From assembly GCA_029941315.1 (NCBI GenBank), contig JAPYQE010000004.1, positions 143 to 52,609 of the forward strand: a stretch of DNA of 52,467 nucleotides, given 5' to 3'. Shown one piece after another: positions 16,934 to 21,214 of the stretch. The notes under the pieces were generated by a model, which was given only the letters and a program-made list of their open reading frames with translations, was not told the DNA's origin and searched no databases. The position numbers and the translations under genes were made by a program. The stretch comes from Candidatus Latescibacterota bacterium (lineage in GTDB: Bacteria > Latescibacterota > UBA2968 > UBA8231). The stretch's first letter is position 1. Each line of letters starts with the position of its first letter.

Positions 16934-18400
16934 ATGACCGATCGACCGAATATCCTTTGGTATTGCAGCGACCAACAGCGTTTTGATACGATCGCCGCGT
17001 TGGGCAACGCGCACATAAATACGCCGCGTTTAGACGCTTTCGCCCGCAAAGGGGTGGCCTTCACCCATGCCTATTGCCAAAGTCCGATCTGCACTCCGAG
17101 CCGCGCCAGTTTTCTCACCGGCACCTATCCGGGCGCGAACGGGGTTACCGGCAATGGCAATGAATTTTTCCCGCGCGAACAGGAGAGCCGGCTACTGCCG
17201 CACCGCTTGGCGAAAAGTGGCTACGATTGCGGGTTGGTCGGCAAGCTGCACTTGGCCAGCGCGGCGCATGGAGTGGAAAACCGGGTCGACGACGGCTATC
17301 GCTATTTCCAATACAGCCACGACCACAGGGGGGCACGCGTCTACGGGCACGACTATGCCGAGTGGGTGCGGCAGCAGGGTGGTGACGCCGACGAACTTAT
17401 GGTCCCTTATCAGACCAAGAACTATCGCGAGGGCGCCCGGGTCGCAACTTTCGGTGGCTTATACGAGCCGACGGCAAGCGCGGACAATATTCCGCCGGAC
17501 CTGCACCAGACGCGCTGGTGTAGTGAGAAGTCGATCGAATTTATCGACAAAAACCGCCGCGAGGACCAGCCCTGGATGCTCAGCGTCAATGCTTTCGACC
17601 CGCACCCGCCTTTTGACGCGCCGTGGGAGTATTCTCGCCGCTATGATCCGGAGACCCTACCCGGCGCGCATTTTGCCGCCAGCGACATAGAGCAGCAACA
17701 GCGGTTGGCTGCAGGTGGAATCGATTTTCAGTCGGAGGCGAAAGACCCGGCCGAATGGGAGGACAAGAAACTCCAGGCTTCTTATTACGCGATGATCGAG
17801 CAGGTCGACTGCGAGTTCGGGCGCATCCTCGACCATCTGGAGGCGACTGGCGAACGCGAAAACACCATTGTCGTCTTTATGAGCGACCACGGCGAGATGC
17901 TCGGCGACCACGGGCTGGTTTTCAAGGGCTGTCGTTTTTACGAGGGGTTGGCGCGGGTGCCGCTGATCGTCTCCTGGCCGGGGCATTTTTCCGAGGGCGT
18001 GGTGTCGGATGCGTTGGTCGAATTGATGGATCTAGCGCCGACCTTTTATGAAGCGGTCGGCGAAGAAGTGCCCTATTACGTGCAGGGCAAGTCGTTATTG
18101 CCGGTGCTCAAGGGTGAGACACAGGACCACCGCGATTTTGTGCGCAGCGAGTTCTACGGGGCAATCGATTATCCCGACCAGACGCACGCGACGATGTACC
18201 GCGACCGGCGCTGGAAGCTCGTCTCGTATCACGGCAAGGACCTTTACGAACTCTACGACCTACAGAGTGATCCCTGGGAGCATAACAACCTGGCTGACGC
18301 ACCGGATCATCAGGCGGTTAAATGGGAGCTAGTGCGCAAGAGCTTTGACGCCACGGTACAGGCGCGTATGCCGACCGCGCCGAGGGTGATGCCCTTTTGA
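16934..18400 (+). CDS. Formylglycine-dependent sulfatase (S1)
   Basis: RPNIL, DQQR, CTPSRAS.LTG, GKLH, PHPP, SDHG, ELYDL..DP.E..NL; no signal peptide. Confidence 0.93.
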   Translation: MTDRPNILWYCSDQQRFDTIAALGNAHINTPRLDAFARKGVAFTHAYCQSPICTPSRASFLTGTYPGANGVTGNGNEFFPREQESRLLPHRLAKSGYDCGLVGKLHLASAAHGVENRVDDGYRYFQYSHDHRGARVYGHDYAEWVRQQGGDADELMVPYQTKNYREGARVATFGGLYEPTASADNIPPDLHQTRWCSEKSIEFIDKNRREDQPWMLSVNAFDPHPPFDAPWEYSRRYDPETLPGAHFAASDIEQQQRLAAGGIDFQSEAKDPAEWEDKKLQASYYAMIEQVDCEFGRILDHLEATGERENTIVVFMSDHGEMLGDHGLVFKGCRFYEGLARVPLIVSWPGHFSEGVVSDALVELMDLAPTFYEAVGEEVPYYVQGKSLLPVLKGETQDHRDFVRSEFYGAIDYPDQTHATMYRDRRWKLVSYHGKDLYELYDLQSDPWEHNNLADAPDHQAVKWELVRKSFDATVQARMPTAPRVMPF

Positions 18401-18514
18401 ACATTGATCTTATCGATTTAGATCAATGGTGCACGATATCGCCTTAATACACACTACAGATAATGAACGGGTTGATGGGATCCAGGGCGGAGTGGTGGGT
18501 GTTTTCGAGATGAC

Positions 18515-18901
18515 CTACGGAGTCGCGGTTATTATCTGACCGGTAGTTTTACGGAGTCGAATGCCGCTTTGTTCAGTGACATAGATCGCTATGTGGAATT
18601 CGAGCGCTATTTTCTTGCGATGTATCGAGATTATTTGCAACAACTCCACGATGGTGAACACGGTGATTTTGTTTACGACGAGCTCGCCAAGATTGGGTCG
18701 CAGAGTCCGGCGCTTCAAAGTCTGGCCGAGCCAGGTGCGGCGTTGTCGCCGATTGAGTTGCGCTATGAGTCGCAAATGGTTTAGGCTGCGGATAGAGGTC
18801 TCCTGGACCAGGTCCGCCGCCGCATCCGGCTTGCGCACCAGCTTGATCGTCTGGCGCTGGAGTGTTTTTGCAAACTCCTCGTATAAATCGTCGACGGCCC
18901 T
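18515..18901 (-). pseudogene. ECF sigma factor remnant
   Basis: Reading upstream of the called ORF gives AVDDLYEEFAKTLQRQTIKLVRKPDAAADLVQETSIRSL...RRTWL (region 2, AxDLVQE motif); no start codon for this segment; region 4 eroded. Confidence 0.72.
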
Positions 18902-19018
18902 TGTCCTCTGACCCGCTTTTACTGTAAAATGAAGGTCGGGTACGAAGTGTTTGCTTTTTTATAGAAATTAAGCGATTGAGGTGTTGGAAGGTGGATGGAC
19001 GGCAAGAATAAAAAACAC

Positions 19019-19047
19019 TTGCGATGGACAGAGTCGCGGATTAAAAT
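19019..19047 (+). promoter_or_regulatory. Sigma70-type promoter
   Basis: TTGCGA(19019-24), 17-nt spacer, TAAAAT(19042-47), with an A-rich upstream tract. Confidence 0.7.
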
Positions 19048-19053
19048 AAATAA

Positions 19054-19176
19054 ACGCGCGCTGAAGGGAGCCTCCGGCCCGCGGTAAGGGTTTAACCCAC
19101 CTTTAACCCACCAAATTACATAGACCTTCTTTCAGCCTGATCGGGCGGGCACCAGGCGTAGCACGGAGAGGGTAGT
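19054..19176 (+). ncRNA. Candidate structured 5' leader RNA (unnamed)
   Basis: Nested pairings CTCCG/CGGAG (over the SD) and GCCCGC/GCGGGC; hairpins GGGT-TTA-ACCC and GCCT-GATC-GGGC; crossing GCTGAA/TTCAGC pairing. Confidence 0.55.
19091..19112 (+). repeat. Perfect 11-bp tandem duplication TTTAACCCACC x2
   Basis: 19091-19101 is identical to 19102-19112. Confidence 0.9.
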
Positions 19177-20017
19177 ATGTCTAATTCAATATCCCAAACT
19201 AAATCCGAGTCCGAGATCCGGCGCGAAGCCAGCGAGTTGTTTAAGGCCCGCATCTGCTTGTGAACGCATCCGCAAGTCCGCGCCGCGCTTTGCCAAGGTT
19301 ACCGCCGCGGCGATTCTCGCTTCGAGCAGTGTGGTCGACACGCTGGAAACGGTGTCTCGTGAGCGCGGTTTCGCCAGTTGGCACGCAGTGCAAGAAGCCG
19401 GGCGAGTCGAGTCTGGAGCATTTAAAGAAGCAGGCCAAGAAGCTGCTCAAGGCGCACCAGGCCGGCAATGCGGAAGCGGTCTCGAGCGGATCGTCGCGCA
19501 AGGCAGCAGTGGCGGCGAATTCACGCTTAACGACGCGCAGTTCGTGGTGGCGCGTGAATAGGACATCGATAGCTGGCCGAAATTGGTGGCAGGTTTTGCG
19601 ACGGATGACGATAGCACGACCTTTAGTCACTATCAGCGCGATGCCGTGAACAGATGCACGGAACTTGCAGTCCGCCATTGCTCGTTTTTAATGTCATTTG
19701 ACGCTGTACGCCGCGATACCGCCGTTATTGGCGACTAGGTCGAGGTCCATTTTGTGTGGCACCACGATATCGTAGGAGACCGACTAGGAATCGCGGCGTG
19801 GCCCCGTCGCCTTGATTGCGCCGTCCGTTGCTATACGGATCTCCCGCGCGATCTCTCTGGTCCGGTTTTCGTCGGTGTCGACCCGCACTTTGGCGCGGAC
19901 GCGAATATAGTGTGGCCCCAGTCTTCGACGTGGATGCCTCTGGACCTCGCGTCGACGACGAGTTCGTCTTTGGACGTCAGTGTGAATTTTCGCGTCTGGC
20001 AGACATCGGCTAAGTAG
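19177..20017 (+). pseudogene. Pseudogene with two tandem helical 'LKKQAK...AREYGF.SW' domains and an unknown C-terminal domain
   Basis: EIRREASELFKA...VSRERGFASW, then SLEHLKKQAKKLLKA...AQFVVARE*DIDSWPKL; three frameshifts and in-frame TAGs at 19559 and 19736. Confidence 0.72.
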
Positions 20018-20089
20018 AATCAGGGAATATGGCCTGCAGTTAGGATAGATTCGGGGAATGGTTATTTTGCCTTATAAAGGGGGGTGGTT

Positions 20090-21214
20090 ATGAAAATCGT
20101 CGAAATTAGTTCGGTATTGTTGCAGCCGATGCCTTGGGTGTTGGTAAAGGTGAAGACGGATGATGGAATTGTGGGGATTGGGGAGGCGTATCATGGGGCG
20201 GGCGTGCATCAGATTGCGGTAGATGAGCGGTTGACCAAGACACTCATCGGGAAAAACCCGCTCGATGTCGACCGCTGTTTTCGCGATATGATGAAGGGCA
20301 TGTCGGCGTCGGGCTATTATCAGGGGGCGGTGATGAGCGCAATCAGCGGGATCGAGATGGCGTTGTGGGATATCGCCGGGCAGGCGGTGGGGGTGCCTAT
20401 TTGGCAATTGTTGGGCGGGCGTTTTCGCGATAAAGTTCGCGTGTACAATGATTGCCATGCCGGTAAGGACGAGACGCCGGCGGCTTATGCGGCAAAGGCC
20501 AAGGAGGTCGAGGCGCGGGGTTTTACGGCGATCAAATTTGACATAGATCCCCTGCCTTCGCGGCGCGACGCGTATAATCGCTGTATCAGCAACGACGATA
20601 TCGCGCACTATGTCGCGGTGGTCACCGCGGTGCGCGAGGCCTTGGACTCGAACACGGATTTGGCCATTGATGCGCATTGGGCCTATGCGCCGGTCGACAT
20701 TCTCAAAGTCGCGCATGCGTTCGAAGATTTGGGTCTGTTGTGGTTGGAGGACCCGATTCCGGCGGAAAATGTCGAGGCGATGGCGATGGTCAAAAACAGC
20801 ACCAAAACGCCGATCTGCACGGGGGAAAACTTTTATACGCGCTTTGGCTTTCGCGAACTGATCCAGTCGCAGGCGGCCGATATCGTCTCGCCGGATATGG
20901 CCAAGGCGGGCGGGCTGTTGGAGGGGCGGCGGATCGCGGATTTCGCGGATATGTACTATATGCCTTTGGCGCCGCACAATATCTGCGGGCCGATCGGCAC
21001 TTTTGCGATGACGCATGTCTGCGCGGCAGTGCCCAATTTTCTCGCGTTGGAGTTTCATCACTTGGACAATGCGCTTTGGTCGGATTTGGTAAAAGAAGGG
21101 CCGTTGATTGTCGATGGGCATATTGCGACGGGGGAGAAGCCTGGTTTGGGAGTGACGCTGGACGAGGGGGTGGCGAAGGCGGCGGCGAAGGAGGATTTGG
21201 GCTTTTTTTCGTGA
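20090..21214 (+). CDS. Mandelate racemase/muconate lactonizing enzyme family acid-sugar dehydratase
   Basis: GIGE, AISGIEMALWDI.G, LLGG, KFD, metal ligands D/E/E (AIDAH, LEDP, GEN), APHN, PGLG. Confidence 0.9.
   Translation: MKIVEISSVLLQPMPWVLVKVKTDDGIVGIGEAYHGAGVHQIAVDERLTKTLIGKNPLDVDRCFRDMMKGMSASGYYQGAVMSAISGIEMALWDIAGQAVGVPIWQLLGGRFRDKVRVYNDCHAGKDETPAAYAAKAKEVEARGFTAIKFDIDPLPSRRDAYNRCISNDDIAHYVAVVTAVREALDSNTDLAIDAHWAYAPVDILKVAHAFEDLGLLWLEDPIPAENVEAMAMVKNSTKTPICTGENFYTRFGFRELIQSQAADIVSPDMAKAGGLLEGRRIADFADMYYMPLAPHNICGPIGTFAMTHVCAAVPNFLALEFHHLDNALWSDLVKEGPLIVDGHIATGEKPGLGVTLDEGVAKAAAKEDLGFFS

Follow-up and report, generated by a model that had tools for sequence, protein, structure and literature searches.

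The stretch of DNA analysed here (the window: 52,467 nucleotides (nt) of contig JAPYQE010000004.1 from a Candidatus Latescibacterota bacterium) contains at positions 19053-19183 of the plus strand an element that is best explained, as a whole, as one copy of a widespread family of 5' leader RNAs of about 130 nt, unnamed as far as could be found. The probability of this reading is put at roughly 0.8. The window copy matches two covariance models over their full length, with 100.2 bits and an E-value of 7.5e-22 for model R1 (match G000:C4:19195-19325) and 95.5 bits for model R2 (locus L046). The element has the hallmarks of a riboswitch-type leader, namely a conserved and covarying structured domain, a position in the 5' untranslated region and an expression platform (helix P3) that sequesters the Shine-Dalgarno (SD) sequence. 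As an orphan, the family is a strong candidate for either a riboswitch or a leader that responds to a protein. The family finding is real and weightier than the single locus suggests, despite the dead gene that lies behind the window copy.

Covarying fold of the leader

The covariance model R1 was built from 16 sequences. R2 is a model of the same type with an added 5' hairpin (P0), and the 101 matches realigned with R2 form the alignment A6. Six helices, two of them pseudoknots, are backed by covariation in A6. Their pairs form in 95.9% of the alignment cells, against 87.8 ± 0.3% in shuffles, and 27 of the 34 pairs are changed on both sides (14.3 ± 1.7 in shuffles), with 305 cells carrying such a double change versus 77.8 in shuffles. 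The covariation score is 0.329 and does not exceed 0.102 with slid partners. None of these measures was reached by any shuffle (0/500). The pseudoknots PK1 and Pa are in neither covariance model and the alignment was, consequently, not fitted to them.

The fold was recovered in two further sets. Twenty-five rows, 24 of which are in neither model and one (L011) in the R1 seed, gave 93.8% of paired cells and 25/34 pairs changed on both sides, while 81 cross-phylum rows gave 95.8% and 16/34, each with 0/500 shuffles. RNAalifold, run on 16 sequences, recovered P1, P3 and P4, the pseudoknots being outside the reach of the method. The helices are placed in the window as follows, with the percentage of cells that pair and the fraction of pairs changed on both sides:

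19058-19071, plus strand: P0 hairpin, 19058-61 with 19068-71; 94.3%, 2/4
19064-19067, plus strand: 5' strand of PK1, AAGG, in the P0 loop, pairing with CCTT at 19100-03; 89.9%, 4/4
19077-19082, plus strand: 5' strand of Pa (second pseudoknot), GCCCGC, before P1; 98.8%, 4/6
19088-19098, plus strand: P1 hairpin GGGT-TTA-ACCC, 19088-91 with 19095-98; 99.5%, 4/4
19100-19103, plus strand: 3' strand of PK1, CCTT, directly after P1; placed by family covariation and column mapping
19124-19133, plus strand: 5' strand of P3, the anti-SD ACCTTCTTTC, pairing with 19165-73; 94.7%, 10/11
19135-19157, plus strand: P4 hairpin, GCCTG 19135-39 with CAGGC 19153-57; 98.4%, 3/5
19145-19150, plus strand: 3' strand of Pa, GCGGGC, inside the P4 loop, pairing with 19077-82
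19165-19173, plus strand: 3' strand of P3, the SD region GGAGAGGGT; placed by family covariation and column mapping

P3 consists of 9-11 base pairs between the pyrimidine tract ACCUUCUUUC, an anti-SD common to the window and nearly all family members, and the SD located about 5 nt before the ATG. The junction bases GCC.CC, GG.AAGG, ACC and GCGGAC..C.GGC are near-invariant. The commonest form of Pa in the family is GUCCGC/GCGGAC, and the G19060/A19069 pair of P0 is a mismatch in the window copy. Pairing of GG 19083-84 with CC 19100-01 as the outer part of P1 was tried and dropped, because the C residues at 19100-01 covary with the P0 loop.

An initial annotation of the window had described a GC-rich leader of about 120 nt, folded into five helices and masking the SD. 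All of the strings that it named were found at their positions by direct sequence look-up, and the structured leader stood. Its GC content (0.593, versus 0.587 for the whole window) is not high for its setting. Two of the five helices are supported by the family and three are not. GCCCGC (19077-82)/GCGGGC (19145-50) is Pa and GGGT/ACCC is P1. On the other hand, CTCCG (19072-76)/CGGAG (19164-68), the SD pairing that had been put forward, forms in only 59.7% of the cells and GCCT/GGGC in 70.3% and 38.0%; taken together these two reach 60.9%, a value below the shuffled mean of 61.4% and attained by 430 of 500 shuffles. GCTGAA (19060-65)/TTCAGC (19131-36), with 55.0% and 65.6% of the cells, does no better than shuffles. 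The masking of the SD was therefore rightly foreseen and its partner was not, this being ACCUUCUUUC (19124-33) rather than CUCCG.

Distribution of the family

A second copy in the same genome (G000:C169) is 79% identical to that of the window and is placed directly before a frame for the same protein domain. Conservation between these two copies is higher in the upstream block than in the coding DNA. Among 61 relatives, a search with the DNA returned 22 non-self places at E ≤ 1.9e-4, all of them about 10 nt before genes that open with M-x-x-x-LPxxPxLxxLKKQAK. R1 finds eight copies in the genome of the window and, across the sample of its phylum, 194 matches in 58 of 151 genomes, with up to 16 per genome.

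A strict DNA pattern was found in at least 120 stretches of named genomes. The 80 loci taken from it all match R2 at full length (80/80, E 1.2e-10 to 4e-23). By their record titles, 55 are of Acidobacteriota type, 8 of Gemmatimonadota type, 6 actinomycete (five Amycolatopsis-type or 'Actinomycetes' and one Actinopolymorpha), 3 of Armatimonadota type, 2 of Planctomycetota type, 2 Latescibacterota, 2 'Deltaproteobacteria', 1 Tepidiformaceae and 1 unclassified, where the grouping of the orders in these titles into phyla is taken from general knowledge and was not computed. The leader thus appears in records labelled as at least seven phyla besides that of the window. In even samples of two other phyla it is present in 9/151 and 13/151 genomes, sporadically and mostly as a single copy, which points to an expansion in the window's phylum. 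One locus contains, besides a full copy, a partial leader that comprises the 5' half only (L144:70-144; 40.8 bits), the two being about 1.4 kb apart.

Promoter and position of the leader

The initial annotation had placed a near-consensus promoter before the leader, with a start near 19054. The site TTGCGA-17-TAAAAT (19019-19047) is indeed listed by the promoter scan, with 9/12 matches, and its 5-nt gap fits the family. The elements around the leader are:

19019-19024, plus strand: -35-like hexamer TTGCGA, from the promoter scan; 34 nt before the model start
19042-19047, plus strand: -10-like hexamer TAAAAT, after a 17-nt spacer; 5 nt of gap to the model start
19177-19179, plus strand: ATG start codon of the downstream decayed gene, at the same model position as in nearly all family members

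Family-wide, TTGNC-type boxes are concentrated 36-31 nt upstream of the model start. A sigma-70-like match (at least 8/12, no more than 70 nt upstream) precedes 86 of 100 leaders in A6 and 57 of 81 in A8, the coding controls giving 12 and 6. In 78 of these 86 and 54 of these 57 promoter-positive leaders, the end of the -10 box lies 1-8 nt upstream of the model start. The sigma-70-like promoter keeps a fixed distance to the element, and the predicted start of transcription is a few bases ahead of the latter; given the 5-nt gap after the -10 box, the predicted start in the window lies near 19053-19056. With the promoter-like site ending 1-8 nt before it and the ATG about 5 nt after P3, the element is placed in the 5' untranslated region.

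Association with an N-terminal domain

The leaders are linked to a protein domain with the signature LPxxPxLxxLKKQAK...AREYGFxSW. A three-frame search with the domain profile (A5) places the start of the domain no more than 45 residues from the leader for 187 of 207 leaders (88/101, 22/25 and 77/81). In the same three sets the domain is found about 100-350 residues further on in 3, 3 and 0 leaders and was not found in 10, 0 and 4. The suggestion in the initial annotation that leaders of this kind stand before further genes with the same N-terminal domain was accordingly borne out, both by the DNA search of relatives and by these 187 leaders, and the leaders upstream of homologues are conserved and covarying in A6 and in the two further sets. 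Among the 151 genomes of the phylum, 56 have both leader and domain and 86 have neither; 2 have a leader but no domain and 7 a domain but no leader (63 with the domain, 58 with the leader). Counted from the domain, 104 of the best 150 hits have a listed leader that ends at -20 to +80 nt; for another 12 the listed leader lies 264-1034 nt upstream.

The domain comprises about 85 residues, is helical and is always found at the extreme N-terminus, joined to varied C-termini. In 80 proteins from the window's phylum the latter include ankyrin (20), FliG_C (16), FliM (7), Clp_N (4), MgtE_N (4) and sigma-54 AAA+ (3), as well as single nuclease, peroxiredoxin, methyltransferase and glyoxalase domains. 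LRR and TPR are further fusion partners, and ankyrin is present in 55 of 66 cross-phylum downstream proteins. No conserved downstream partner gene was seen among 34 neighbours, in which SnoaL-like genes occur three times, aspartyl-protease families twice and all others once.

The AlphaFold2 model of the domain is a five-helix unit with a predicted local distance difference test score (pLDDT) of 88. No solved structural relative was obtained with Foldseek against the PDB (E ≤ 1e-3) or by sequence search, the best VIA-align Z score being 3.8, and the protein Atlas search with the domain returned only 'hypothetical protein' clusters with scores below 0.9. The domain has no Pfam model of its own. 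Only 4 of its columns are invariant and the mean column identity is 38% (A5).

Two arrangements depart from the usual order. In G000:C88:12840-13316 a domain gene is preceded only by the 3' end of a leader (GGCGGACAAC..GGAAAGAG), the 5' half being gone, and the domain can therefore exist without a full leader. In G000:C258:7580-8794 (L050), and also in L154 and L121, the leader is followed by a 96-residue FliG-like frame without the domain and, directly after it, by a frame with two N-terminal domains. This arrangement is either two genes or a fused gene split by a frame change.

Proposed mechanism and effector

The leader would act as an OFF switch of translation. As long as an effector holds the folded 5' sensor part (P0-PK1-P1-Pa), the anti-SD would be available to lock the SD. 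Without this hold, the AAGGGAG purine strand of P0/PK1 could pair with the anti-SD, and the SD would be freed. The initiation of translation would, in this manner, be repressed by default or in an effector-stabilised state.

The effector may be a small ligand or ion, perhaps also sensed by the N-terminal domain, and this tentative choice is placed first among the candidates. Conservation is higher in the RNA than in the domain, a slight argument against an RNA and a protein that co-evolve as a pair. Such a difference in conservation is also seen for small-ligand riboswitches.

Placed next, as a possible though doubtful effector, is the N-terminal domain itself. Under such autogenous control the domain, possibly while still nascent, would bind the leaders of its own message and of those of its paralogues and keep the SD locked. 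The leader accompanies the domain whatever the C-terminus, directly in 187 of the 207 cases and within the same operon or gene in 6 more, and a position directly before the gene of the candidate binding protein is the criterion for autogenous leaders. The constant placement of the domain at the extreme N-terminus, the separate leader of each paralogue (up to 16 per genome) and the lack of attached metabolic or transport genes and of a conserved downstream partner also speak for it. On the other hand, the domain is not notably basic (mean net charge +1.3, range -4 to +9 in 37 domains). OST-HTH and GFD1, which we take to be the only RNA-binding-annotated families among its Pfam matches, are reached by 2/37 (best E 0.0051) and 1/37 domains, all below the cut-off. 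The weak match seen most often is to the N-terminal part of PF20066 (25/37). An RNA better conserved than the protein fits a constant partner better than a co-evolving one. In addition, some domain genes have lost the leader, such as that of G000:C88 with its 3' remnant, and 34 of the best 150 domain hits have none in a leader list that comprises 150 of the 194 matches.

A broader proposal, speculative and fairly unlikely, regards promoter, leader and domain as a cassette, an RNA-protein module that has spread onto many C-termini in at least eight phyla. The domain would fold on emerging from the ribosome and clamp the leader of its own message, which would allow one or a few translations in a co-translational cis feedback. 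Alternatively, and about equally new, the RNA and the domain could sense the same signalling molecule.

Evidence against the reading and further alternatives

Several points weigh against the reading of the window element as one copy of a family of switching leaders. The family members are related, so that the shuffle counts (0/500) overstate independence and are not probabilities. The search pattern of the cross-phylum set fixes Pa and part of P1 and P3, and invariance there is by choice. Folded alone, the window leader (19054-19185) has a minimum free energy (MFE) of -40.2 kcal/mol (z = +0.12), a value equalled or bettered by 108 of 200 shuffles; at this z value the thermodynamic test of a single copy is uninformative. 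The MFE fold of the window leader already pairs ACCUUCU with AGAGGGU and P3 can, accordingly, form without the 5' domain. The ON-state pairing AAGGGAG/CUUCUUU is possible in 88.0% of the cells, compared with 87.9% in shuffles and about 90% in some slid registers, and shows no covariation. The frame that opens at the ATG of 19177 ends after 28 codons, with the rest of the domain in other frames. On the side of the reading stand metatranscriptome contigs from three runs of three studies (151-172 nt, 95-99% alike), which span only the interval from 19054, 19076 or 19097 to 19210-19215, with the leader and about 35 nt of coding sequence. These contigs stem from close relatives and diverge inside the coding region. 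They cannot show start, strand or transcription, and DNA can occur in RNA libraries; they are only a weak hint. They do not cover 18800-19053, and this lack of cover is no evidence of absence.

The MFE fold and the ON-state result bear on the alternative of a leader that is always folded and has no dedicated effector, acting as a constitutive damper, in a thermometer-like manner or as the target of S1, a helicase or a CsrA-type protein. The formation of P3 without the 5' domain and the ON-state helix without covariation fit this alternative, and U-rich anti-SD pairing is the mode of known RNA thermometers. Two covarying pseudoknots and near-invariant junctions, however, far exceed what a damper or thermometer needs, no Rfam family was matched, those of thermometers included, and the strict link to one protein domain is left unexplained. 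A leader with no dedicated effector is thus considered improbable, and the remaining weight is left to other readings.

The RNA contigs bear on a further alternative, in which the conserved block is not an mRNA leader but a site acting at the DNA level, a mobile repeat, a small upstream frame or a free small RNA. The block is multi-copy, the contigs hold the leader with only the first coding nucleotides, and the equal scores of leaders before short or broken and before long frames (below) could mean a gene-independent role. Against it, Watson-Crick and G-U pairs are preserved on one strand through compensatory changes, and the block has a fixed spacing both to the upstream promoter and to the SD and ATG that follow it. 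Neither terminal repeats nor transposase genes were seen in the neighbours looked at, no frame is conserved through the block, and insertions and deletions distinguish two copies in this genome. This alternative is highly improbable, and the leader RNA is retained as the best explanation.

Decayed gene and surroundings of the window leader

The gene behind the window leader is read by comparison with the intact orthologue L061 of 350 amino acids (aa):

19177-19600, plus strand: decayed gene, its protein having two N-terminal domains in tandem

Relative to L061, the frame changes near 19240-19262, a patch near 19405-19480 is out of frame, a TAG stands in frame at 19559-61, and the C-terminal 200 or so residues are lost. 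A DNA run of another study (X5) has no insertions or deletions over 19253-19800 and the lesions in that interval are, therefore, not private to this assembly. In X5 the contigs are interrupted between 19218 and 19253, close to where the pseudogene first changes frame, and strain variation may exist at that point. The window leader is probably a relic, because its gene is decayed.

Short frames are found behind other leaders. Of the leader loci L045-L156, 29 of 100 (such as L060, L099, L131, L091 and L087) are followed by a first frame of less than 150 aa, often frameshifted within the first 20 codons. The leaders before short or broken frames score 95.9 bits (n = 29), and those before long frames 95.3 bits (n = 71). 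The LPP codons are often runs of 5-7 C (for example in L043, L019 and L040), which could be prone to slippage. The short first frames may represent decay, assembly error or phase variation.

An enolase-superfamily gene follows at 20084-21214 of the window. Its product has 73-90% identity to those of genes in metagenome-assembled genomes (MAGs) labelled Gemmatimonadota, Poribacteria, Latescibacterota and Caldilineaceae, and 99% identity to that of a gene in one labelled Gemmatimonadetes. This likeness reflects either wide sharing among lineages or loose MAG labels. In another locus an element of about 110 nt (L219:3948-4060) lies just after a leader-controlled gene. On each of its strands it matches a microRNA model, at 44.5 and 38.7 bits and thus short of the gathering score, and it is probably a long palindromic hairpin.

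Comparison with known systems

In agreement with the initial annotation, which had recognised no riboswitch in the leader, no family of Rfam 15 was matched. A search of the window region 18000-20500 with permissive filters yielded no more than a 12-bit 5.8S match elsewhere, and for eight cross-phylum loci the only matches were to microRNA models, below threshold and outside the leaders. The thermometer models ROSE and fourU gave no Rfam match either; the leader has six helices with two pseudoknots, in contrast to a simple SD-masking hairpin. Full-text literature searches found no description of the leader RNA. The main texts of the discovery papers PMC11109978 and PMC8632094, whose motif lists lie in their supplements, do not mention the carrier taxa or ankyrin. 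The 'Rhodopirellula-1' motif is given in Table 1 of Weinberg et al. 2010 (PMC2864571) as cis-regulatory, uncertain as an RNA and present in Proteobacteria and Planctomycetes, without an Rfam accession. Its taxa overlap with those of the leader (Planctomycetota-type and 'Deltaproteobacteria' records), and at the level of this table row the identity of the two is neither shown nor excluded.

If truly undescribed, the family would be a large orphan class of structured regulatory RNA with two covarying pseudoknots and at least hundreds of copies. Its carriers are poorly studied soil, marine and sponge-associated lineages, as well as cultured actinomycetes that are open to bench tests. The family marks an uncharacterised domain in front of ankyrin, FliG/FliM-like, sigma-54 activator and other proteins, and the RNA offers a handle on how these are switched. 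The effector, once found, would add a new riboswitch ligand or a new RNA-binding domain.

At the protein level, the closest likeness is to the Pfam family PF20066 (Glyoxalase_8). The domain weakly matches the first 55 or so positions of this profile, in 25/37 members at E ≤ 1 (best 8.4e-4; 2.6e-4 for L043). All of these scores are below the curated cut-off, however, and only 1 of 80 downstream proteins matches Glyoxalase (PF00903).

Among RNAs, the SAM-II, SAM-V, preQ1-II and guanidine-III riboswitches likewise draw the SD into a pseudoknotted leader, control translation and occur in Gram-negative or high-GC phyla. The present leader does not match their Rfam models, is larger, with its six helices and two pseudoknots, and is tied to one domain instead of a pathway. 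The autogenous leaders of L1, L10, S15 and ThrRS are similar in being structured, in standing directly before the gene of the putative binder and in repressing translation. In the present family, binding is only proposed, no RNA-binding fold was recognised in the domain by the Pfam and structure searches, and there are up to 16 paralogues with varied C-termini. The c-di-GMP-I and c-di-GMP-II riboswitches, in turn, also occur in many copies per genome and before signalling- and motility-type proteins rather than metabolic enzymes. The leader differs from them in lacking an Rfam match, in its fold and in its restriction to genes with one N-terminal domain.

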